A DNA stretch of 64,000 nt, taken from the NCBI GenBank assembly GCA_965225855.1, contig CBDDCK010000005.1:608001-672000 (forward strand), read 5' to 3'. The position numbers were made by a program, and so were the translations under genes. Under the pieces are notes generated by a model, which saw only the letters and a program-made list of their open reading frames with translations, did not search any database and was not told the origin of the DNA. The DNA comes from Spirochaetia bacterium. Its GTDB lineage: Bacteria > Spirochaetota > Spirochaetia > SP-2023. Of this stretch, positions 4,198-64,000 are shown piece after piece; position 1 is the first letter of the stretch; the number at the start of each line of letters is the position of its first letter.

Positions 4198-4681
4198 TAT
4201 TCAACCTCCACTGTAAATTTTAATGAAATTTATTTGATAGCCTGGAAAAGATTATATGAAACAATCATCTAAGTTTTGTGTGTAAGTGTGCAACGAGCAT
4301 AGCAAAAACACAAAAAAACACAAACGTTTCGTAAGCCAAATTTAGGTAAATTATTTACTATTTTGTTCATGGTGAAAATATTGCCCAAGCGCGATAAATA
4401 TGCGGCTGTTTATACCAAAATATTAAAAATACCATCAATTTATTTTAGCAAGATTTGCAAGAAAATAGTCGAGATAAGTATTAGCGAATCCTAACAAGAA
4501 GAGAGTTTTGAGGTAGATCAATATTATTGAGCAGGGCGTAGGATGCGAGGTAAAAAGACTGGGCGCAGCGGGCAAGACGCGGGCATTGGGTTTGCTAAAA
4601 GAGAAGAAAAAATTCATATAAAATATTGCGATAAACTATAGTAAGGCAGAACTGCCTTCGATATTCGTTATGAAACGATAT

Positions 4682-6406
4682 TTATCTCACCAGAAAAAAT
4701 TGACGATTTAGGTAATTTAAGCGTTCAGAGGCTTTCTGACTATATTCATCGACAGAATGATTGATCTGTATGTTGTTGTACGAATCTTTTGCTTTGCGCA
4801 GGTTTTGATGTTCGCCCGGCTGTTCATAGAACAACCCCATACTGTAGAGAATTTCCGGTTCATTCTGATCCGAATAAGAATTTACATAAGTTTCGTAAAA
4901 ATCTAAAAGATGGGCAGCATTTTTACTGTCTGTAAAAATAACAGCTGTTTGTGCCGTGTTGGGGCTTTTTTTGAACAGAGTAGTAAATATGTTGGCAAAA
5001 TCTTCAGAACCAATTTGCCTTTCTTGTAGCGGTTGGTTTTGTTCATTTTTCGCTTGCTCTAAAAATTGCGGTAGCCATTCCAACAATTTTTTAGAATCAA
5101 ATGAATTAGAAAGTGCTTTGGTTATACCTACTAGAGCTTTGCTTTGTAAATAACCTTCAATATTTGCGTTGCGCTGCCACATATTTACGGCTTGCTCGTT
5201 CATGCCGGCATCAAAAAAATATTGAGCAGCCGTATCATAAATTTCACCACGCTCACGCTCAGGCCAACTACTTAGGGTTTGATAAGCTGCATCGAATTCT
5301 CCATCTTCAAGCATCTGCCGTATATCGGAAATTACTTGGCTGGTAATACGGTAATTAATATCTTTGTCAATATTTGATATCTTTGATAAATTATTTTTTG
5401 TTAAACTACTTGGGCTGGCATTGTTGCCCAGTTGGCTGCTTGAAACATTTGGGCTTAAAGTATTATTTTTTATAATGGGTGCTGCAACCATATTTTGATA
5501 ATTGCTGCGAGAGTCTTGGCCTTGAATTTGATACTGGAGGGCCGGTTTTTCTACGATGATTTCGGCATTGTAGTATTCCAATTTGCCTGTGCTGGGAAAC
5601 TGCCGTGAGAATGTAAGAAAATAACGGCCAACAGCAGGAAATTCGAAGCGAAAAGATGTTTTCAAATTGCCTAATTCTCGTTCAAATTCAGGCTTGCGTG
5701 GATATTCGCTAAGCCCTGGTATGTAAGTCCAAATTAAGCCATGCAAAGAAACGTGGAAAGATTCACCAAAAGGGATTGTTTTGGAAACATTGGTTTGTTT
5801 ATTTGGGGTGCCACGTTGCACCGTATTATTCAAAGTGTTTAGCGATTGCGCCTTTGCTAATGTTTGAGATTTTTGGGTCTTGGCGTTTTTTGCAGAAGAG
5901 ATATTTTTCTTTTCTGTTCTTTGTGATTTTTTTGCCGGTGGTGTTCTTTTGGGGGTTGTTTTTTGAGTTGGTATGGTAGGAGTTAATCTACGTGGCGCAA
6001 ATTTTAACGTTCTATCAGCTTCAGCAGTGTTATTGTTATTGTTGCGGTTTGCTTGGTTTGTTTTTGCTAGTGTTGGAGGTTCTTGAGGTTTGGAGATAGC
6101 GGCTTTTGTTTGTTGTTGGCTTTGTTGCTCTATTGGTTTTGCCGCTGTTTCATTATTTGACTTTGTATTCAACTGTAAAGGTGTTGCAGAAAGTTGGCGA
6201 ACCGCTTCGAATTGTTGCTGAATGTCATCTTGTGAAAAACCATTTATGCCAAGCCCGGGAATGCTTTTATCTAACTTTGTGTTGTCCTCTTGATTATTCT
6301 GGGCATTCAATAGCCAGGCAAAATCCAGATACAGAGCAAAAATAAACAGACAGAAATAAAAAAGCGGGGAGAGTTTAGTTCCCGTAAGAATTATCAATAT
6401 TTTCAT
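4682..6406 (-). CDS. Hypothetical exported protein with low-complexity K/N/Q/T linker and TPR-like C-terminus
   Basis: 574-aa ORF with signal-like N-terminus and TPR-like helices (EPEILYSMGLFYE...LRKAKDSY). Confidence 0.65.
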   Translation of the reverse strand: MKILIILTGTKLSPLFYFCLFIFALYLDFAWLLNAQNNQEDNTKLDKSIPGLGINGFSQDDIQQQFEAVRQLSATPLQLNTKSNNETAAKPIEQQSQQQTKAAISKPQEPPTLAKTNQANRNNNNNTAEADRTLKFAPRRLTPTIPTQKTTPKRTPPAKKSQRTEKKNISSAKNAKTQKSQTLAKAQSLNTLNNTVQRGTPNKQTNVSKTIPFGESFHVSLHGLIWTYIPGLSEYPRKPEFERELGNLKTSFRFEFPAVGRYFLTFSRQFPSTGKLEYYNAEIIVEKPALQYQIQGQDSRSNYQNMVAAPIIKNNTLSPNVSSSQLGNNASPSSLTKNNLSKISNIDKDINYRITSQVISDIRQMLEDGEFDAAYQTLSSWPERERGEIYDTAAQYFFDAGMNEQAVNMWQRNANIEGYLQSKALVGITKALSNSFDSKKLLEWLPQFLEQAKNEQNQPLQERQIGSEDFANIFTTLFKKSPNTAQTAVIFTDSKNAAHLLDFYETYVNSYSDQNEPEILYSMGLFYEQPGEHQNLRKAKDSYNNIQINHSVDEYSQKASERLNYLNRQFFLVR

Positions 6407-30997: not shown

Positions 30998-32275
30998 ATG
31001 AAAATGATGCACATGATTGCGGTATTCTCTTTATTGTCTTTTCTTGCTTGCGATAACGGACAAGACGGACAAGACGGGCAAGATGGACAAGATGGCAAAA
31101 ACGCTCAAGGCAACAACCAACCGGCGCCACCATCCCCGACTGTTTGCCCAAAGGCTAAATATAACCCCGCAAATAAGGCGGAACTCGAGAAACTTTTAGA
31201 TTCTGGCAGAGTGCAAGATTACAATACAATAGATACTTCCCAAATTACCGATATGTCTAGCTTATTTTATGGGAAGAGGACTTTTAACAAAGATATTAGT
31301 TGCTGGGACACTTCAAATGTTACCACTATGCAATTTATGTTCAACAGTGCTGCTGCTTTTAATCAGAATTTGGAAACAAGGGACAAGAAATGGAATACCA
31401 GCAATGTTAAAGATATGTCTTTCATGTTCAGCTATGCCACAGCTTTTAATGGCAAAATTGGCAATTGGGACACCAGCGCGGTTACCAATATGAAGTCAAT
31501 GTTTTCGGTTGCTACTGCTTTTAATCAGGATTTAGAAAGAAAGGGCAAGCAATGGGACACCAGCAAGGTTACCGATATGGCTGGCATGTTCAGCTATGCT
31601 TCTTCTTTTAATAGCAAAATTCACACTTGGAAAACCGGCAAGGTTACCGATATGAATAGTATGTTCAGCCATGCTACAGTTTTTAATCAACCCATCAATC
31701 ATAACAATGGTAATTGGGACACTGTTAATGTTCTGACTATGAGAGGTATGTTCGAGGGTGCTACCAAATTTAACCAAAACCTCAACCGTTGGAATACGAG
31801 TAAAGTTGTAGATATGACCTTTATGTTCAAAGACGCAAAAGCCTTTAACGGGCCCATTGGCAATTGGGAAACCCATAAGGTTGGTACCCATAAATTAGGG
31901 GTTAAGAAGGGTATGCAGGGAATGTTTCAGGGTGCAACATCTTTTAACCAACCCATCAATACAAACCCTAGAAATGAGCAAGTAAGTAATGTATGGGACG
32001 TTTCCAATGTTGAGTATATGCATGATATGTTTAGCGGTGCCAGTGCTTTTAACCAGCCTTTGAATAAATGGAATGTTTCCAAAGTAAAGTCTATGGATTA
32101 TATGTTTTACGGTACCTCTAATTTTAGCCAAAACCTTAATAAATGGAAGCTAACGGCAGTTACCACTTGCAAGCAGATGTTCTACAGTAGTAATATGCCC
32201 AAGCGTGTGCAAAATATAGGAAACCCAAGGCCTAAAGCAAATTCTATTGGCTGCAATCCATCGGCCGACTCATAG
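30998..32275 (+). CDS. BspA-like/DUF285 repeat surface lipoprotein
   Basis: Lipobox LSFLAC; (DGQ)4 linker; about 11 repeats of WDTS.VT.M..MF..A..FNQ. Confidence 0.9.
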   Translation: MKMMHMIAVFSLLSFLACDNGQDGQDGQDGQDGKNAQGNNQPAPPSPTVCPKAKYNPANKAELEKLLDSGRVQDYNTIDTSQITDMSSLFYGKRTFNKDISCWDTSNVTTMQFMFNSAAAFNQNLETRDKKWNTSNVKDMSFMFSYATAFNGKIGNWDTSAVTNMKSMFSVATAFNQDLERKGKQWDTSKVTDMAGMFSYASSFNSKIHTWKTGKVTDMNSMFSHATVFNQPINHNNGNWDTVNVLTMRGMFEGATKFNQNLNRWNTSKVVDMTFMFKDAKAFNGPIGNWETHKVGTHKLGVKKGMQGMFQGATSFNQPINTNPRNEQVSNVWDVSNVEYMHDMFSGASAFNQPLNKWNVSKVKSMDYMFYGTSNFSQNLNKWKLTAVTTCKQMFYSSNMPKRVQNIGNPRPKANSIGCNPSADS

Positions 32276-32497: not shown

Positions 32498-33009
32498 GGA
32501 GTAATGTGGGGTATTTGGGCAAATTGTTGCGTGTTGCCCTGCTTATGGGGCTTTCAGAGGGTGCTTGACGGGATTGGAAGTGGTTTATAGTTAGCCTACC
32601 GTTTTTCACTTCTTTGTTTGACTTTGCCCAACACCTTTTTATATGGTCTCCATATTATATGGTCTCCATAGCAGATCAATAATGAAAAGCCACAATAGCC
32701 CCCACCTCAACACCAAACCAATAACGGCTCCAACCCCCAACTAACACCCCAAAGCAACAAACCCGATCGACACTGTATTGTCAAAATTCTTTGCGTGAAG
32801 AGCCGCAACTATATAGTGATAAGAGACCCAGCTAAATAAAGAGAAGCCCATATAGCCCAAGCTAAAGTACCCTAACACAAAAAAAGTACAAAAAAACTTA
32901 CAAAAAGCTTGTATAGGCCTTGACGCAACACCCCCCCTAGCAAAATGGGGATTTACAGACTAGCCCGTATGGGTTGGTTAATCTTTATCCATTGTTGGAG
33001 GTATTGCTT

Positions 33010-35124
33010 ATGTATAAGCTCAAACTACTTTTATTGCCTGTAGCCTGGCTACTGGCCTTTATGGCCTTGGCCTGCGCCCCACCCGATGACGATGATCGAT
33101 CTTCTGGGCCATCTTCTGGGCCGTCTATCAATAATGCCATCTACGACTTTGCTACGGCTCTGTTAACCGTACAAGGTACTGACTTAAGTCCTACAGAAGC
33201 CCAAATCCAAACCATCGTAGTAGATGGCATAGCTTTAGATTCCTATACTGCAGATGACCCAGCCACTGGGCCAGATAATAGCAATCTGGCAAAAGGTAAG
33301 TACCGTATTAAAAGCGATGGCACAGCGCTTTGGCTTAGACTTACCGATCAACATAAAGCTGCTCTTCAGACCAAGGTGGGTATGAATACCAATGGTCTAA
33401 AAAAAGGGTTGCTTACTAGCTCTGGTGCTTGGGCGGGTTTAAATACACCTAAAGACTTGGACGTTAGGAATGTACCCGATAAGCAGTCTAAAGTATCCGA
33501 TGACAATCAGCCATCTAAGCAAACTGAAGACGAACAAGCTGAAGAAGAGTCGCCTAAGCAATCTAAAGACGAACAAGACGAACAAGACGAACAAGACGAA
33601 CAAGACGAACAAGACGAACAAGCTGAAGAGGAGTCGCCTAAAGCTGCAATTACCGGTGCAAGCTACAATGTTGGCACGGCGCTGTTAACCTTGCAAGGTT
33701 CTAACTTAAGTCCTACAACTGCGACCCAAGCCCAAATCCAAACCATCGTAGTAGATGGCATAGCTTTAGATTCCTATATTGCAGATGCCACAGCCACTGG
33801 GCCAGATAGTCGCGGTCTTGCAAAAGGTAAGTACCGTATGAAAAGCGATGGCACAGCGCTTTGGCTTTACCTTACCGATACCGATAAAGCTACTCTGAAT
33901 GGCAAGACAGGTATGGATAGCAATGGTCTAAAAGATGGGTTGCTTACTAGCTCTGGTGCTTGGGCGGGTTTAGATACAGCCAAAGCCTTGGCCGTTAGTG
34001 GAAACCCCGCACCCACAATTACCCGTGCAACCTATGATGTTACTATAGGCTTCTTAGTGATTACAGGTACTAATTTACCAAAAGCAGTTACAGGCTGGGA
34101 CTTTAGCAAATTGACGCTTGTATCCGGTGATGGTAGTAATAGATTCACATTACCCCGGCATAACAGCAAAACCTATGGTTATGGAAGTAGAAACAGAGCC
34201 ACAGGTTCTAGTGCAAGTGCAACAGGCTTACAGATTACTTTAATTGGTAGTGTAAAAACGGAAGCCGAGAAGATACTGGTTAAGGAAGGTCTTCGTGATG
34301 CTAATGGTGCATACAACCTGGAAGCAGCAGCAGGATTTGCAGGTGGTAGCGCTGAAGACACAAGCAATCCTATTACCGTTAGCGGGTATACAGCCAGCAT
34401 CACCAAAGCAACCTACGATGCTAATACAGGCGAGTTATATATTATTGGTATCAAGTTACCGACATCAATTGCAAGATGGGACTTTAGCAAATTGACACTT
34501 GTATCCGGTGATGGTAGTAAGAGATACCCATTACCCGAGCACGCAATAGGTGAAAACACAGCCACAGGTTCTCGTCCAGGTGTAACCTACTTAACGATTA
34601 CTTTAAGCGGTAGTGTAAAAGCGGAAGCCGAGAAGATACTGGTTAAGGAAGGTCTTCGTGATGCTAATGGTGCATACAACCTGGAAGCAGCAGCAGGCTT
34701 TGCAGGTGGTAGCGCAGAAGACACAAGCAACCCGATTACCGTTAGCGGGTATGTAGCCAGCATCAACTTCGTATCATATATAGCTAGTACAGGCCAGTTA
34801 ATTATTAGTGGTAGCAGGTTACCGACAGCAGTTGCAGACTGGGACTTTAGCAAATTGACACTTGTATCCGGTGATGGTAGTAAGAGATTCACATTACCAC
34901 GGCACTCAACCGAAGGTGCAAATAGAGTCACAGGTTCTCGTGCAAGTGCAACAGGCTTAGACATTACTTTAAGCGGTAGTGTAAAAGCGGAAGTCGAGAA
35001 GATACTGGTTAAGGCTGGTAAAAGTGATAATAATGGTGCATATAACCTGGAAGCAGCAGCAGAATTTGTACCTGGTAGCACAGCAGACCCAACCACTAGT
35101 ATTCAATTTATAAATGCTAAGTAG
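33010..35124 (+). CDS. Repetitive surface lipoprotein (two copies of domain A, acidic DEQ linker, three copies of domain B)
   Basis: GGAGGT RBS before ATG 33010 (ORF track starts 32974); lipobox FMALAC; near-identical internal DNA repeats. Confidence 0.85.
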   Translation: MYKLKLLLLPVAWLLAFMALACAPPDDDDRSSGPSSGPSINNAIYDFATALLTVQGTDLSPTEAQIQTIVVDGIALDSYTADDPATGPDNSNLAKGKYRIKSDGTALWLRLTDQHKAALQTKVGMNTNGLKKGLLTSSGAWAGLNTPKDLDVRNVPDKQSKVSDDNQPSKQTEDEQAEEESPKQSKDEQDEQDEQDEQDEQDEQAEEESPKAAITGASYNVGTALLTLQGSNLSPTTATQAQIQTIVVDGIALDSYIADATATGPDSRGLAKGKYRMKSDGTALWLYLTDTDKATLNGKTGMDSNGLKDGLLTSSGAWAGLDTAKALAVSGNPAPTITRATYDVTIGFLVITGTNLPKAVTGWDFSKLTLVSGDGSNRFTLPRHNSKTYGYGSRNRATGSSASATGLQITLIGSVKTEAEKILVKEGLRDANGAYNLEAAAGFAGGSAEDTSNPITVSGYTASITKATYDANTGELYIIGIKLPTSIARWDFSKLTLVSGDGSKRYPLPEHAIGENTATGSRPGVTYLTITLSGSVKAEAEKILVKEGLRDANGAYNLEAAAGFAGGSAEDTSNPITVSGYVASINFVSYIASTGQLIISGSRLPTAVADWDFSKLTLVSGDGSKRFTLPRHSTEGANRVTGSRASATGLDITLSGSVKAEVEKILVKAGKSDNNGAYNLEAAAEFVPGSTADPTTSIQFINAK
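33568..33621 (+). repeat. 9-bp in-frame VNTR (gacgaacaa)x6 encoding DEQ repeats
   Basis: Directly visible. Confidence 0.95.
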
Positions 35125-53378: not shown

Positions 53379-53700
53379 AATTTAGAGCAAATATAAAAAG
53401 AGCGGTTGCGTTGCGTATGATCGTACTAAACATTTACGATTTTTTGCAATTTTTTGAGACTGCCACAGGCTCGTTGGGAAATCCCTAGGTTGCAAATCAA
53501 AAAAGCTAGTAAGGTTTTGGGCAAAAACCTTACTAGCTTTCTTTAAAAACCTTACTAGCTTTTTGAGACCATGCGCTGTTACCATGATATTTTGATACTT
53601 ACACCATCTTATACCATATTGCTGCCGACAATAACCCATATGCCGAAAAACAAAAATTCTAACGGTTAAAATTTAGAGCAAATATAGAAAGAGCAGTTGC
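53358..53700. repeat. 52-bp direct repeat pair (53358-53409 and 53649-53700, 2 mismatches), each copy ending in CRISPR-repeat-like sequence
   Basis: aacaaaaattctaacggttaaaatttagagcaaatata(a/g)aaagagc(g/a)gttgc. Confidence 0.9.
53498..53566. terminator. Hairpin with one left arm and two alternative right arms; possible bidirectional terminator
   Basis: aaagctagtaaggtttt pairs with aaaaccttactagcttt at 53524-53540 or 53546-53562. Confidence 0.6.
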
Positions 53701-53724
53701 ATACCTTTTTCATTTCGGTTTAAT
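53693..53724 (+). CRISPR. Detached degenerate CRISPR repeat
   Basis: gcagttgcatacctttttcatttcggtttaat equals the array repeat lacking the first GTT and one T. Confidence 0.92.
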
Positions 53725-53829
53725 TAGGGCCAGGGCTAGCGAGAATGTGCAGCGTGGTTTGGATAGAGACGCTGGGAAAATTCTTTGGTAAAATTAAAAA
53801 ATAAGAAATTAGGAGTTTTAGGAGTTTTT

Positions 53830-54643: not shown

Positions 54644-57600
54644 GTTGCAGTTGCATACCTTTTTTCATTTCGGTTTAATAAATTCTTTAGGTCTTTAACT
54701 TTAGCAGTTGTTGCAGTTGCATACCTTTTTTCATTTCGGTTTAATCCGTTGCCACGAAACCTTACCACCAAGGGCGTTGCAGTTGCATACCTTTTTTCAT
54801 TTCGGTTTAATCCTTGGCTTTGATTTTTTGGATATTATTTAGTTGCAGTTGCATACCTTTTTTCATTTCGGTTTAATACCTCTACCCCTATCTCTCCCCC
54901 CACTCCTGTTGCAGTTGCATACCTTTTTTCATTTCGGTTTAATACCTCTACCCCTATCTCTCCCCCCACTCCTGTTGCAGTTGCATACCTTTTTTCATTT
55001 CGGTTTAATCTTATTCTGCTTCTTAAGTCTATTATAGGTGTTGCAGTTGCATACCTTTTTTCATTTCGGTTTAATTCAGACCCAACAGACAAACCATGAC
55101 CGGCAGTTGCAGTTGCATACCTTTTTTCATTTCGGTTTAATGATTTGGATTGTGAATTGTGGTAGGCTATAGTTGCAGTTGCATACCTTTTTTCATTTCG
55201 GTTTAATTGCGCTTAGTCGCAAGGTCAACATCCAGGCGTTGCAGTTGCATACCTTTTTTCATTTCGGTTTAATCCTCTGGAGGCCACAAAGTGTAAGGCA
55301 GTGGTTGCAGTTGCATACCTTTTTTCATTTCGGTTTAATTTACGGGAAATACAAAGATACAATATTTTTGTTGCAGTTGCATACCTTTTTTCATTTCGGT
55401 TTAATATGCCAATAACATCTGGACTATCTCTTTTTGTTGCAGTTGCATACCTTTTTTCATTTCGGTTTAATCCTATAGGGATCACTGGTGGCTCACCTCT
55501 TGTTGCAGTTGCATACCTTTTTTCATTTCGGTTTAATACACATCTTTAATCAAAAATCCTACTTCTTGTTGCAGTTGCATACCTTTTTTCATTTCGGTTT
55601 AATTTCACTGCGACCAAGGGCAATATCCTGTTGGTTGCAGTTGCATACCTTTTTTCATTTCGGTTTAATCTTTGGTGTAATCATAATGTCGAATTTCTGG
55701 TTGCAGTTGCATACCTTTTTTCATTTCGGTTTAATACAAGGTCACGACCGCGACTAGGCTTGTATGTTGCAGTTGCATACCTTTTTTCATTTCGGTTTAA
55801 TTATTCAAGTCACCATACTCACCGGCAGCATGTTGCAGTTGCATACCTTTTTTCATTTCGGTTTAATACAAGGTCACGACCGCGACTAGGCTTGTATGTT
55901 GCAGTTGCATACCTTTTTTCATTTCGGTTTAATTATTCAAGTCACCATACTCACCGGCAGCATGTTGCAGTTGCATACCTTTTTTCATTTCGGTTTAATA
56001 TTAAACGCAACCCCCATTCAGTCGACCTAGTTGCAGTTGCATACCTTTTTTCATTTCGGTTTAATACCATCGCCAGCAACAAGTCTCTTTGCGTGGTTGC
56101 AGTTGCATACCTTTTTTCATTTCGGTTTAATGATTCTACCATTCTCACGCCCTACAAGAGCGTTGCAGTTGCATACCTTTTTTCATTTCGGTTTAATGTG
56201 AGGTATTAACAGCCGATGATATAGTTAGTTGCAGTTGCATACCTTTTTTCATTTCGGTTTAATTTGTCAGCCCAAATTGTTCTTTTGTATTATGTTGCAG
56301 TTGCATACCTTTTTTCATTTCGGTTTAATTATGCGCCCGTGATCTACAATATTATGGTTGTTGCAGTTGCATACCTTTTTTCATTTCGGTTTAATAGAAA
56401 TATCTCTAAGCATATTAAAAATCATGTTGCAGTTGCATACCTTTTTTCATTTCGGTTTAATTCTCTTTCGATACGATGCATCCATTCTTTAGTTGCAGTT
56501 GCATACCTTTTTTCATTTCGGTTTAATAGTAGACATATGCATAACTTTGCCAAGTATGTTGCAGTTGCATACCTTTTTTCATTTCGGTTTAATTTTGTGA
56601 ATGGTCCAGTGTCTGTATTCGTTGTTGCAGTTGCATACCTTTTTTCATTTCGGTTTAATAATTACAACATTCATCGGCAATAAATAAGAGTTGCAGTTGC
56701 ATACCTTTTTTCATTTCGGTTTAATCATTGTACCCTGCGGTGTACGATCAACATAGTTGCAGTTGCATACCTTTTTTCATTTCGGTTTAATTCCAGGAGT
56801 AACCATAACAGAACCCTTAGCGTTGCAGTTGCATACCTTTTTTCATTTCGGTTTAATCATTGTACCCTGCGGTGTACGATCAACATAGTTGCAGTTGCAT
56901 ACCTTTTTTCATTTCGGTTTAATTCCAGGAGTAACCATAACAGAACCCTTAGCGTTGCAGTTGCATACCTTTTTTCATTTCGGTTTAATCATTGTACCCT
57001 GCGGTGTACGATCAACATAGTTGCAGTTGCATACCTTTTTTCATTTCGGTTTAATTCCAGGAGTAACCATAACAGAACCCTTAGCGTTGCAGTTGCATAC
57101 CTTTTTTCATTTCGGTTTAATCATTGTACCCTGCGGTGTACGATCAACATAGTTGCAGTTGCATACCTTTTTTCATTTCGGTTTAATTCCAGGAGTAACC
57201 ATAACAGAACCCTTAGCGTTGCAGTTGCATACCTTTTTTCATTTCGGTTTAATCATTGTACCCTGCGGTGTACGATCAACATAGTTGCAGTTGCATACCT
57301 TTTTTCATTTCGGTTTAATAGTCTTAGGAATGGAGTGGGAAGTCTGAAGGTTGCAGTTGCATACCTTTTTTCATTTCGGTTTAATATTTTTGCCCGTTGT
57401 TTTGCTTTTATTGTGGTTGCAGTTGCATACCTTTTTTCATTTCGGTTTAATAAATTTGCCTGTTTTATATTCTCGTAGTACGTTGCAGTTGCATACCTTT
57501 TTTCATTTCGGTTTAATTGGAAGTCTTGGCTGGTGAAATTGTTAAATGTTGCAGTTGCATACCTTTTTTCATTTCGGTTTAATTGCTTTTTCTTTTTCCT

Positions 57601-60600
57601 GTGTTTTTTCTTGGTTGCAGTTGCATACCTTTTTTCATTTCGGTTTAATTTAGTGAGTGTCTTATTGCCGTCTTGATGGGTTGCAGTTGCATACCTTTTT
57701 TCATTTCGGTTTAATTCGATATTCTAGGCGCTAGTAACGCAGCTGTTGCAGTTGCATACCTTTTTTCATTTCGGTTTAATGCACTGATGCATAAATAGCT
57801 AGGTTTATCGGTTGCAGTTGCATACCTTTTTTCATTTCGGTTTAATTCGATATTCTAGGCGCTAGTAACGCAGCTGTTGCAGTTGCATACCTTTTTTCAT
57901 TTCGGTTTAATGCACTGATGCATAAATAGCTAGGTTTATCGGTTGCAGTTGCATACCTTTTTTCATTTCGGTTTAATTCGATATTCTAGGCGCTAGTAAC
58001 GCAGCTGTTGCAGTTGCATACCTTTTTTCATTTCGGTTTAATCCTCTGGTAATTCTCCAAGGCTTCGATGCAGTTGCAGTTGCATACCTTTTTTCATTTC
58101 GGTTTAATCCTCTGGTAATTCTCCAAGGCTTCGATGCAGTTGCAGTTGCATACCTTTTTTCATTTCGGTTTAATTTTTAGGTCGTGATGGTGAAGAGCTG
58201 GAAGGTTGCAGTTGCATACCTTTTTTCATTTCGGTTTAATTAAACAATATTAAAGGCAAGTTTATCTTGTGTTGCAGTTGCATACCTTTTTTCATTTCGG
58301 TTTAATAAAATCCAAACAAATCATTCAACAAAACAAGTTGCAGTTGCATACCTTTTTTCATTTCGGTTTAATTTCTGGGATATGATCAAGCGTTTCGCTG
58401 GCGTTGCAGTTGCATACCTTTTTTCATTTCGGTTTAATCCGTAGAGACAACATTATGAATAAGCGAAGGTTGCAGTTGCATACCTTTTTTCATTTCGGTT
58501 TAATAGTAGTAACAAGACCAAAATGAACATTTCCGTTGCAGTTGCATACCTTTTTTCATTTCGGTTTAATAGTAAAACCTCCTACGTCTGCGCATAAAAT
58601 GTTGCAGTTGCATACCTTTTTTCATTTCGGTTTAATATAATTATTTTATTCTCCACCCCTATAAAAGTTGCAGTTGCATACCTTTTTTCATTTCGGTTTA
58701 ATTGTGGCAATTGCCCAATTCGGGATATTTTCGTTGCAGTTGCATACCTTTTTTCATTTCGGTTTAATTAGCAGACCGTAAGGACTTACCAAGAGCTTGT
58801 TGCAGTTGCATACCTTTTTTCATTTCGGTTTAATTAAAAAGGTTGTTACGAGCACTGTAGAACAGTTGCAGTTGCATACCTTTTTTCATTTCGGTTTAAT
58901 TTAAGCGTTGCTGGGCTAAAGGTAATGTGTTGCAGTTGCATACCTTTTTTCATTTCGGTTTAATTGTAATTTCTACTGCTGTAGATTAGATAAAGTTGCA
59001 GTTGCATACCTTTTTTCATTTCGGTTTAATTGTAATTTCTACTGCTGTAGATTAGATAAAGTTGCAGTTGCATACCTTTTTTCATTTCGGTTTAATAGCC
59101 TTTACCAAGTTCTTCCACCCAATCATGTTGCAGTTGCATACCTTTTTTCATTTCGGTTTAATTGACCCGTCAACAGGTCAGTTTCGGCCTTAGTTGCAGT
59201 TGCATACCTTTTTTCATTTCGGTTTAATATATAAATGCTAAGTAATACCTCCGAATTAGTTGCAGTTGCATACCTTTTTTCATTTCGGTTTAATAATAGC
59301 AATTGGACAACCGAAAGCAAAGGGTTGCAGTTGCATACCTTTTTTCATTTCGGTTTAATAGCCTTTACCAAGTTCTTCCACCCAATCATGTTGCAGTTGC
59401 ATACCTTTTTTCATTTCGGTTTAATTGACCCGTCAACAGGTCAGTTTCGGCCTTAGTTGCAGTTGCATACCTTTTTTCATTTCGGTTTAATATATAAATG
59501 CTAAGTAATACCTCCGAATTAGTTGCAGTTGCATACCTTTTTTCATTTCGGTTTAATGAAAACCTTGAGTAACATAAACCGGTGTAGGTTGCAGTTGCAT
59601 ACCTTTTTTCATTTCGGTTTAATATAAAAAAGCTCGGCCTGCTTGTTCAGTGTGTTGCAGTTGCATACCTTTTTTCATTTCGGTTTAATAGCCCCAGTCG
59701 TTTTTTATGAATGTTTTGAGTTGCAGTTGCATACCTTTTTTCATTTCGGTTTAATCCCAATACTACCCAAATCTCCCTCATCCTTGTTGCAGTTGCATAC
59801 CTTTTTTCATTTCGGTTTAATCCTAATACCACCCAAATCTCTCTCATTCTTGTTGCAGTTGCATACCTTTTTTCATTTCGGTTTAATCTAGGTCTGTATT
59901 TGATCTATCTCATTCTGGTTGCAGTTGCATACCTTTTTTCATTTCGGTTTAATATTTGTAGATTGTTCTACCATAGAAGATTGGTTGCAGTTGCATACCT
60001 TTTTTCATTTCGGTTTAATAATACCGATTATCTACAGACTGGCAAGCGAGTTGCAGTTGCATACCTTTTTTCATTTCGGTTTAATATTTGTAGATTGTTC
60101 TACCATAGAAGATTGGTTGCAGTTGCATACCTTTTTTCATTTCGGTTTAATAATACCGATTATCTACAGACTGGCAAGCGAGTTGCAGTTGCATACCTTT
60201 TTTCATTTCGGTTTAATATTTGTAGATTGTTCTACCATAGAAGATTGGTTGCAGTTGCATACCTTTTTTCATTTCGGTTTAATAATACCGATTATCTACA
60301 GACTGGCAAGCGAGTTGCAGTTGCATACCTTTTTTCATTTCGGTTTAATAGCCCCAGTCGTTTTTTATGAATGTTTTGAGTTGCAGTTGCATACCTTTTT
60401 TCATTTCGGTTTAATCCCAATACTACCCAAATCTCCCTCATCCTTGTTGCAGTTGCATACCTTTTTTCATTTCGGTTTAATATAATACTTACTCCATTGT
60501 GTAAGGCTGGGGGTTGCAGTTGCATACCTTTTTTCATTTCGGTTTAATGTGTATCATAGTAGGTCTTGAATCTAGGTGGTTGCAGTTGCATACCTTTTTT

Positions 60601-63600
60601 CATTTCGGTTTAATCCAACCAAGCAATCGCAGCAAAACTGCCAGGTTGCAGTTGCATACCTTTTTTCATTTCGGTTTAATAAAATAATCTTTACCCCAGC
60701 AACGAGTCTGGTTGCAGTTGCATACCTTTTTTCATTTCGGTTTAATGCATGGACAAGAGAATGCCGCAGAAACCTTGTTGCAGTTGCATACCTTTTTTCA
60801 TTTCGGTTTAATCCACAGAACAAAAACCTAAGACTTGGTTGGGTTGCAGTTGCATACCTTTTTTCATTTCGGTTTAATAGATATAAGATGCGGATTGCGC
60901 TTAGTCGCGTTGCAGTTGCATACCTTTTTTCATTTCGGTTTAATATTCCTGCCAAAATAGCGCCTATAGCCATAGTTGCAGTTGCATACCTTTTTTCATT
61001 TCGGTTTAATCATAACATGATCGATATGATGGCGCATTTTGTTGCAGTTGCATACCTTTTTTCATTTCGGTTTAATACTCTTAGGAATAGTATGAGAAGT
61101 CTGTAGGTTGCAGTTGCATACCTTTTTTCATTTCGGTTTAATTTTTTCTTCCGTGCTTATTAATATTTTATTGTTGCAGTTGCATACCTTTTTTCATTTC
61201 GGTTTAATATTTATGTTGCATATAACAACCTCCTATAAGTTGCAGTTGCATACCTTTTTTCATTTCGGTTTAATCTTCTCAGCCAATTCACGTTGATGAT
61301 TCTTGTTGCAGTTGCATACCTTTTTTCATTTCGGTTTAATACCATGACCGGCCATCGTGCCCTGCGGTGTGTTGCAGTTGCATACCTTTTTTCATTTCGG
61401 TTTAATCAGACCAAGCAGACCATCGGACTTAATCCTGTTGCAGTTGCATACCTTTTTTCATTTCGGTTTAATAAATAGATTCTGGTCTCTATAGAATTCC
61501 TTGTTGCAGTTGCATACCTTTTTTCATTTCGGTTTAATAATAGCCTGATCCAAAGGAAGATCACCTTCGTTGCAGTTGCATACCTTTTTTCATTTCGGTT
61601 TAATGAGACTACCGGCTTCATATTTGGGCTTTGAGTTGCAGTTGCATACCTTTTTTCATTTCGGTTTAATAAATAGATTCTGGTCTCTATAGAATTCCTT
61701 GTTGCAGTTGCATACCTTTTTTCATTTCGGTTTAATAATAGCCTGATCCAAAGGAAGATCACCTTCGTTGCAGTTGCATACCTTTTTTCATTTCGGTTTA
61801 ATGAGACTACCGGCTTCATATTTGGGCTTTGAGTTGCAGTTGCATACCTTTTTTCATTTCGGTTTAATATTTTCACAAAACCTTCACACTCACTCTCTGT
61901 TGCAGTTGCATACCTTTTTTCATTTCGGTTTAATAGTAAAATCATAAAGGATAAAGTAATATTAGTTGCAGTTGCATACCTTTTTTCATTTCGGTTTAAT
62001 ACCCCAACAACGAACCTGAAGATCGTAAGTGTTGCAGTTGCATACCTTTTTTCATTTCGGTTTAATCCTACAACCCTTCACAACTCACTCATAATCGTTG
62101 CAGTTGCATACCTTTTTTCATTTCGGTTTAATTTATACTGGCGCTAATGTTGGTGAGGATGTGTTGCAGTTGCATACCTTTTTTCATTTCGGTTTAATGA
62201 GACTACCGGATTCATATCTGGAGCTTGCGTTGCAGTTGCATACCTTTTTTCATTTCGGTTTAATAATTCTTAGATAATATCCATTTAGGGCTAAGTTGCA
62301 GTTGCATACCTTTTTTCATTTCGGTTTAATTAGTCATAAACAAACTTTCTAAAGAATATTGTTGCAGTTGCATACCTTTTTTCATTTCGGTTTAATTTTC
62401 TGGTGGTGTGGGCTCGGCAAAATCCAGTTGCAGTTGCATACCTTTTTTCATTTCGGTTTAATAATGATCAGCGCCCAACCAGATAACTTTGTGTTGCAGT
62501 TGCATACCTTTTTTCATTTCGGTTTAATTTTCTGGTGGTGTGGGCTCGGCAAAATCCAGTTGCAGTTGCATACCTTTTTTCATTTCGGTTTAATTTTGCT
62601 TTCTTGAATCTGCTTGTATTTTAGGTTGCAGTTGCATACCTTTTTTCATTTCGGTTTAATTTTGCTTTCTTGAATCTGCTTGTATTTTAGGTTGCAGTTG
62701 CATACCTTTTTTCATTTCGGTTTAATTCGGAAACAGTTATGCCAGTAGCATTGGAAGTTGCAGTTGCATACCTTTTTTCATTTCGGTTTAATACGATCAA
62801 CCTCGGCTTGAATCTGCTTGTATTTTAGGTTGCAGTTGCATACCTTTTTTCATTTCGGTTTAATCTACCCAAATGCCAATAATCATAAGTAGTAGTTGCA
62901 GTTGCATACCTTTTTTCATTTCGGTTTAATTCAGCTAGCAGAGATTCATGATACAGTTCTGTTGCAGTTGCATACCTTTTTTCATTTCGGTTTAATCGAT
63001 CATGTATTAAAGCAATCTTCTCACGGGTTGCAGTTGCATACCTTTTTTCATTTCGGTTTAATAGGTCACTAACGCGGCGCTGTACAGAAGTGTTGCAGTT
63101 GCATACCTTTTTTCATTTCGGTTTAATAATCCAAACCATCGTGGTAGATGGCGTAGCGTTGCAGTTGCATACCTTTTTTCATTTCGGTTTAATATGAAGG
63201 TTTATTTTGTGCCTTATGGGCTTGTTGCAGTTGCATACCTTTTTTCATTTCGGTTTAATCTCATTTCTCTCATCCTTCACAACCTTCCAGTTGCAGTTGC
63301 ATACCTTTTTTCATTTCGGTTTAATATCAAAAATAGTTTTTTGAAGAGATTTCTGGTTGCAGTTGCATACCTTTTTTCATTTCGGTTTAATTCGCTACCA
63401 ACAGAAAGACCATGACCGGCAGTTGCAGTTGCATACCTTTTTTCATTTCGGTTTAATAAAGGCTAGATTTTCTAAGGTTGGGCCTTTGTTGCAGTTGCAT
63501 ACCTTTTTTCATTTCGGTTTAATAAATTTTTATCAAAATAATGGCCACCTTGCGTTGCAGTTGCATACCTTTTTTCATTTCGGTTTAATAGGAAACTTCT

Positions 63601-64000
63601 TTCCTTGACAAGGCATATTGTTGCAGTTGCATACCTTTTTTCATTTCGGTTTAATACTTAGATTTTTAAGTGCTTCTACAGGTGTGTTGCAGTTGCATAC
63701 CTTTTTTCATTTCGGTTTAATCTATTGATTATGGGCCTGTTGGGCTCTTGGGTTGCAGTTGCATACCTTTTTTCATTTCGGTTTAATTAAAAAATCGTCA
63801 ATGTCGCTACTGTGTCGGTTGCAGTTGCATACCTTTTTTCATTTCGGTTTAATCTTAAATTTGTAACTTTTTTATAATTTTTGGTTGCAGTTGCATACCT
63901 TTTTTCATTTCGGTTTAATCTGCTTAATTTTTTAGCTTGGAGACTTGTGTTGCAGTTGCATACCTTTTTTCATTTCGGTTTAATTTTATCAACATCTCCA
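54644..64000 (+). CRISPR. Large CRISPR array, type II-C-like, about 142 repeats; runs off the window end
   Basis: Invariant 36-nt repeat GTTGCAGTTGCATACCTTTTTTCATTTCGGTTTAAT; spacers mostly 30 nt (range 28-36); 66-bp period; resembles the Neisseria II-C repeat GTTGTAGCTCCCTTTCTCATTTCGCAGTGCTACAAT. Subtype and strand are inferred; no cas genes in window. Confidence 0.98.

Follow-up and report, generated by a model that had tools for sequence, protein, structure and literature searches.

A single spacer, spacer 129, in the type II-C CRISPR array of a Spirochaetia bacterium matches the bacterium's own genome perfectly at eight sites, each in a different gene of a large lipoprotein-like family. 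The spacer is probably an accidental, PAM-less capture of host DNA, which would persist because Cas9 cannot fire on it. Self-targeting spacers as a general class are already known (described in PMC6990116 and PMC7708048). The unusual parts of the present case are its scale and the double match, as a spacer of a second CRISPR type falls on the same protein module.

The type II-C locus and its array

The window, a DNA stretch of 64,000 nucleotides (G000:C5:608001-672000), belongs to a genome in 5 contigs with a contamination of 0.68%. The type II-C array runs on the + strand from 54644 to 64000 and continues past the window to G000:C5:675944; its 36-nt repeats, 202 in number, are all identical, and 171 of the 201 spacers are unique. 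The complete array (G000:C5:662644-675944) is followed by cas2, cas1, and cas9 (1180 aa), all on the minus strand, and by a tracrRNA. Cas9 passes the NCBIfam model TIGR01865 (533 bits, cut-off 100), while Cas1 and Cas2 pass TIGR03639 and TIGR01573, respectively. Along with the presence of these three genes, the absence of csn2 and cas4 from the locus places it in type II-C. RuvC and HNH motifs can be read in the Cas9 translation, with Pfam RuvC_III and HNH_4 above cut-off, and cas9, cas1, cas2, and the tracrRNA look intact as predicted from sequence. The nearest solved Cas9 chains are II-C enzymes of 1082–1092 aa, the best-matching stretch being residues 502–788.

The tracrRNA lies upstream of cas9 (L001:9643-9775) and carries a terminator-like hairpin. 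Its anti-repeat forms a duplex of -39.6 kcal/mol with the + strand repeat, compared with -13.9 kcal/mol for the reverse repeat. Since the anti-repeat pairs with the + strand repeat, the crRNA would consist of the spacer followed by the repeat, read on the + strand, which would place the PAM 3' of the protospacer. According to PMC8092290, transcription of II-C arrays proceeds toward the variable end. Spacer 129 lies in mid-array with 72 spacers on its cas2 side; if that side is the newer end, as we infer, these 72 would have been added after it. A sigma-70 scan across the array repeats found nothing, and none of 73 pattern hits for related Cas9 loci in genome contigs was confirmed. A phage collection (50,697 records) compared with 8000 of the 13,301 array bases gave one weak match (E 0.7), and the portion of the array inside the window, compared with five relatives, gave repeat-like and weak matches only.

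Beside the array, a duplication covers the leader together with the 3' part of cas2 (L001:4047-4330 and 4650-4940), and it is interrupted by a dispersed repeat as well as a degenerate CRISPR repeat. A further CRISPR repeat of the degenerate kind lies at window positions 53696–53725. Two-spacer blocks are tandemly duplicated in up to five copies at 56727–57287, 57716–57966, and 59954–60282. Additionally, three distinct II-C spacers (66/67, 142, and 200) match Cas12a-type repeats with different loop bases, at window positions 58965–58994, 59031–59060, and 63985–64000 and at G000:C5:675813-675842. They differ from the host's own type V repeat (best 4–5 mismatches for 66/67 and 200), and some invader probably carries Cas12a-like repeats, as a mini-array or an RNA decoy.

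Genome-wide, there are three arrays with 578 spacers (510 unique), which share targets among themselves, and one cas1 was found. The second II-C array (G000:C5:898877-902541; 55 spacers, 53 unique) is accompanied by cas9 and cas2 only. ORFs read by eye as transposase-like and DNA-methylase-like are contained in its end (G000:C5:896071-898877), and a lone copy of its repeat occurs at C5:1152750. The remaining array, of type V (G000:C5:1074340-1094684; 322 spacers, 286 unique), lies beside cas12a and a Cas12a3-like ORF.

Genomic matches of spacer 129

Spacer 129 (63128–63157, + strand) is flanked on both sides by exact 36-nt repeats, and its crRNA would be read on the + strand, the direction being taken from the anti-repeat pairing. 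In the window it matches one lipoprotein-like gene (33010–35124, + strand; 704 aa from the conserved family ATG) at 28 of 30 nt in each of two module copies, at 33204–33233 (module 1) and 33735–33764 (module 2), both on the + strand. These matches had been pointed out in a preliminary description together with their codon changes (GTA/GTG and ATA/GTA) and the flank TTTAGATT at both sites, all of which were confirmed; none of 100 dinucleotide shuffles gave any match. The mismatches lie 15 and 5 nt from the PAM end, and both flanks have T at +3 and G at +5.

The whole-genome search for a 30/30 match returned 8 perfect sites in 8 other genes, along with 50 sites at 29/30 and 35 at 28/30. At up to 6 mismatches there are 204 sites, all within 99 ORFs of the lipoprotein-like family. 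The window gene is thus not a special target but one of many near-matches, and its proximity of 30 kb to the spacer is incidental. The self-match described earlier is real, but paralogues are matched perfectly, so that the targeting is not merely "near-self". Moreover, the earlier suggestion that the spacer was derived from a paralogue of the window gene is supported by the eight perfect sites. Seven of these share one 2.03-Mb contig with the array, and all lie inside ORFs, at 185–1646 nt past the ATG. The idea, also proposed earlier, that the mismatches permit tolerance or reflect escape is rejected: eight sites have no mismatch, and variability at the protospacer is unremarkable for the module (38th percentile, in a set picked by spacer likeness that leans low). 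The spacer is one base away from the majority sequence of the module. Its crRNA is same-sense as the family mRNA and therefore cannot pair with it, and RNA targeting by Cas9 through spacer 129 was rejected for this reason.

The target family

A module profile search of the genome found 258 copies in 111 ORFs. The 111-gene family occupies 8.2% of the genome, and the module alone 3.2%. In the 36 of 111 members that were aligned, the leader is basic-hydrophobic and ends in a nearly invariant Cys. A generic, home-made lipobox pattern matched 1 of the 111, and the members are putative surface lipoproteins. In the window gene, a Cys-bearing signal peptide is combined with two copies of the module hit by the spacer, an acidic linker, and three C-terminal repeats. 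Its structure model has five beta-rich domains (mean pLDDT 74, pTM 0.42) and matches generic Ig-like chains at low TM-score, so the product may be a tandem beta-sandwich, adhesin-like protein.

The family matched no Pfam or NCBIfam family, and a search of 40 relatives, three of them congeners, did not detect the targeted module. Among the best 7993 candidates scored, the module had 91 protein hits, of which 86 were on contigs equal in length to those of this genome and 5 on other ENA contigs. A poly-C(7) tract lies upstream of the window gene (32931–32937, + strand). Tracts of at least 6 C precede 106 of 109 family genes examined (7 C in 84, 6 C in 20), which suggests phase variation. A DUF285 lipoprotein-like gene (30998–32275) lies directly upstream of the window target gene.

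The inferred PAM

Flanks of non-self protospacers were obtained from two sources, contigs of four runs compared with the array and spacers overlapping other spacers. Three non-host contigs from one sample of another study match 8 spacers at about 8x the depth of the related strain's cas contig, and are likely phage or plasmid sequences of this species. They measure 4293, 7746, and 12728 nt, with a depth of 37–45 in run X5. The 3' flanks read for three of the eight matches all have T at +5: TTATT for spacer 54 (58175–58204, after allowing a last-base mismatch), CACAT for spacer 71 (59295–59323), and TCCAT for spacer 76 (59624–59653), all on the + strand. Spacer-spacer overlaps numbered 5 under strict matching (null 0.25) and 13 under looser matching (null mean 1.9). 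Their flanks have T at +5 in 11 of 13 cases, of which about 2 are expected to be false, and spacers 7 and 133 share one partner and are hence non-independent.

Counted by distinct non-self spacer, T occupies +5 in 12 of 14, with one mixed (spacer 132, once G) and one A (spacer 189). Against a background T of 0.30 this gives a binomial p of 2.7e-5, or 8.7e-4 after multiplication by 32 position-base pairs. This rule came from the first 8 flanks, 7 of which have T; of 8 further flanks, 7 agreed with it (p 0.0013). No such bias exists on the opposite (5') side of the protospacers, where T stands at the same distance in 2 of 17, and T at +3 occurs in none of the 16 non-self flanks. From these flanks, the PAM of this Cas9 would provisionally require T at +5 (NNVNT). 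The proposed N4GATT motif was rejected: GATT at +5 to +8 is present in none of the three contig flanks and in none of the overlap flanks reaching +8, and it follows 44 of the 204 family sites, including 2 of the 8 perfect ones. The search for the PAM has thus given a provisional T at +5 from 14 non-self spacers, and not N4GATT.

The family sites show the opposite composition. In all 204, +5 is A (155) or G (49) and never T, and +3 is T in 199. Flanks such as CTTAAGTT and TTTAGATT fall outside the inferred NNVNT. The lack of a PAM at spacer 129 is unremarkable alone, because about 73% of module positions are without T at +5 anyway.

Self-targeting spacers and chance

The three arrays have 510 unique spacers, of which 11 match the host genome perfectly; two of these fall on the lipoprotein-like family. 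Six of the 11 belong to the II-C array (3, 23, 126, 129, 147, and 162). Three others in the window hit single-copy targets: spacer 3 (54812–54841) and spacer 23 (56132–56161) with C at +5, and spacer 126 (62931–62960) with G at +5, all on the + strand; outside the window, +5 is A for spacer 147 and G for spacer 162. The inferred T is therefore found in 0 of 6 perfect II-C self-targeters versus 12 of 14 non-self spacers (Fisher 7e-4), and the weight of the PAM-less evidence is carried by this 0 of 6. Spacer 129 itself has perfect protospacers outside the arrays and lacks the inferred PAM at them. Elsewhere, PMC7708048 puts the share of self-spacers with a consensus PAM at about 1.5% for type II (II-C excluded) and 12.8% for type V. 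Self-targeting II-C spacers of Flavobacterium columnare are, as PMC8092290 puts it, almost always without the canonical PAM.

The family is also the expected place for repeated matches, as 4.1% of genomic 30-mers occur at least 8 times and 76% of those lie within family genes. At least two family-targeting self-spacers would arise by chance with p 0.23 when the share of the family genes is used and 0.046 when that of the module is used, so the enrichment of self-spacers over target size is weak (p 0.05–0.23).

The second match in the module and the congeners

In the type V array, spacer 276 has a perfect protospacer (25/25) in the window gene at 33163–33187 on the minus strand, with the 5' flank GGAC and the target-RNA flank GUCCU. 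The spacer is antisense to the family mRNA, and its site lies 16 nt upstream of the spacer-129 site, on the other strand of the same module. Spacer 276 has 48 perfect sites in 48 genes, all in the first module at 141–159 nt from the ATG, and 243 sites within 5 mismatches. Cas12a recognizes TTTV as its PAM. None of the 243 sites has TTTN on the PAM side, and the other two perfect type V self-targeters likewise lack TTTV. Overlaps among Cas12a spacers numbered 6 (null 2.8), with one TTTC and one TTTT among the flanks. Cas12a spacers 271–273 were rejected as self-targets, the match being a spacer shared with the third array.

The ORF beside cas12a is a Cas12a3-like effector by sequence likeness, with Cas12a3 as its only PDB matches (E 1e-52), not Cas12a or Cas12a2. 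A second, stand-alone Cas12a3-like ORF (G000:C5:1804250-1807993; about 1243 aa; PDB E 3e-82) lies far from the three arrays. Cas12a3 favours a purine-rich PFS and contacts A at +2, as stated in PMC12851939. The spacer-276 target PFS is pyrimidine-rich, and A at PFS +2 occurs at none of the sites.

In one congener (G001), spacer 40 of 72 in the orthologous II-C array has at least 38 dispersed self-sites, one of them perfect, among the best 40 of 64 candidates scored (the listed sites include G001:C1:280287). Its target is an intergenic dispersed repeat upstream of the congener's own, different multicopy gene family, and the three sites read all have C at +5. The orthologous Cas9 is 49% identical, and its single overlap flank has C at +5, which speaks against the T rule. 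A second array of G001 has one single-copy self-match. No many-site spacer was found in one array each of G002 (best 40 of 53 candidates) and G003. The recurrence of multi-site self-targeting in a congener is suggestive but not significant. Taken together, two systems on one module 16 nt apart and the parallel in a congener suggest something slightly beyond pure chance.

Origin and persistence of spacer 129

The accidental capture of spacer 129 may have proceeded in a few simple steps. Cas1-Cas2 would now and then integrate host DNA without the PAM selection of Cas9. Because it fills 8.2% of the genome, the family would offer the most host DNA, and so the largest single target, to such chance self-sampling. 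Self-spacers with a PAM would be lethal and lost, whereas PAM-less ones could drift along. Spacer 129 would persist because Cas9 is predicted not to engage any family site, given that its PAM appears from the flanks to need T at +5 and that no family site has it. The spacer of the Cas12a array on the same module may have come through this filter independently.

It is unlikely that the spacer records incoming family cassettes with Mu-like ends, phage-packaged from kin cells, through which the module would be sampled in excess as invader DNA. Such an origin differs from accidental capture in the source of the spacer and not in its tolerance, as again only PAM-less spacers would survive because chromosomal paralogues match. 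The genome does hold a Mu-like prophage (about G000:C5:1257.7-1293.7 kb) with a transposase (phrog_310), a transposition protein (phrog_296), terminase, major head, Mu Gp27, GemA, and Mor; the transposase was identified by PHROGs, the Pfam Mu-transpos_C search giving no hit with its control also silent. The left end of this prophage matches an end upstream of 30 of the 111 family genes, two spacers of the Cas12a array come within 3 and 4 mismatches of prophage sequence, and the module is matched independently by two arrays. However, the end occurs at just 4 of the 8 perfect-site genes (p 0.14), and no prophage end was found at the window gene, which thus lacks the two flanking ends of a mini-Mu. 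Moreover, no II-C spacer lies within 6 mismatches of the prophage, and weak matches to family genes or flanking sequence are no more frequent for the spacers than for shuffled ones. A mobile source is hence possible, though not required. A broader and speculative proposal, which we consider doubtful, is that arrays of the genus repeatedly capture expanding host surface-protein families that spread from cell to cell as mini-Mu cassettes, and that DNA-cutting Cas9 and RNA-sensing Cas12a3, both directed at one module of the 111-gene repertoire, brake this spread or drive shuffling once an allele gains a PAM or PFS.

A prophage could also matter in another way, by an anti-CRISPR that holds Cas9 inactive; under such inactivation, or under silencing, self-targeting would be tolerated at any flank. 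Six perfect self-targeters in one array, the many small unnamed ORFs of the resident prophage, and the link of self-spacers to prophages and Acrs drawn in PMC7708048 fit this explanation. It is nevertheless very unlikely, since the self-spacers should then keep the acquisition PAM as the non-self spacers do (12/14), yet 0 of 6 have it; no Pfam anti-CRISPR was detected in the 46 of 70 small prophage ORFs scanned, which is a weak test. Equally hard to credit is a selected regulator or diversifier, in which Cas9 represses the family or rare cuts drive gene conversion, while the spacer of the Cas12a3 array senses mRNA. In its favour, 98 of 111 family genes have a site within 2 mismatches of spacer 129 or spacer 276, the perfect Cas12 sites all fall in the first module, Cas12a3-like effectors are present, and a congener spacer matches a repeat upstream of that genome's own multicopy genes. 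Against it, the inferred PAM or PFS is present at no site, neither protospacer shows escape-like variability, arrays of two other congeners (one each) carry no many-site spacer, and the poly-C tracts of the family offer a simpler switch. Repression by Cas9 as in Francisella, raised in the preliminary description, is unlikely because the targets are intragenic, matched over their full length, and same-sense as the crRNA, besides having no inferred PAM. Binding of dCas9 on the template strand represses more weakly. Features of the scaRNA type are likewise missing from spacer 129, which is an ordinary mid-array spacer with 30/30 matches at 8 sites, none at a promoter or 5' UTR. Finally, an assembly chimera joining array and targets from different strains is extremely improbable: the genome is in 5 contigs and related strains exist, but the array and 7 of the 8 perfect sites share one contig, contamination is low, and a genome-wide family would supply targets in any strain.

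If accidental PAM-less capture is the correct explanation, the case would illustrate in nature, and cleanly, that PAM discrimination by itself can protect hundreds of near-perfect sites on the chromosome, and it would supply a provisional PAM (T at +5) for an uncharacterised 1180-aa Cas9. Spacer 129 would then drop out of the candidate cases of gene regulation by CRISPR. If the capture of mobile cassettes were true, adaptive immunity would be linked to how a mobile multigene surface repertoire is controlled. A narrow literature search found no published self-spacer against a multicopy lipoprotein family, and a search pairing mini-Mu with CRISPR spacers found none.

Comparison with known systems

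In the Cas9-scaRNA system of Francisella novicida, as presented in PMC12231574, a Cas9 guide matches an endogenous lipoprotein gene, as is the case here. That system is of type II-B and uses a stand-alone scaRNA with a partial R-loop of 11–14 bp at the 5' UTR. In contrast, the present system is of type II-C, with an ordinary array spacer pairing 30/30 inside coding sequence, without the inferred PAM. The NmeCas9 system of Neisseria meningitidis (II-C; PMC12477760) shares the layout of cas9, cas1, cas2, and array, with 36-nt repeats and 30-nt spacers. The similarity of the two enzymes is limited to the nuclease core, and in place of the N4GATT of NmeCas9 the non-self flanks here point to T at +5 without GATT. 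By the same account, NmeCas9 normally enforces the PAM at acquisition. Cas12a3 enzymes are RNA-triggered nucleases of tRNA tails (PMC12851939), to which the ORF beside cas12a is matched by sequence search. Spacer 276 is complementary to the family mRNA; however, in place of their purine-rich PFS with A at +2, all 48 perfect sites have GUCCU.

Flavobacterium columnare, as described in PMC8092290, likewise has a II-C array with intact cas genes, several arrays alongside one cas1, and phage-matching spacers with a PAM next to self-matching spacers without one. The evidence here is genomic and not from an acquisition experiment. Compared with F. columnare, one spacer here hits a species-specific family of 111 genes at 8 perfect sites and about 200 near ones, and a second CRISPR type falls on the same module.
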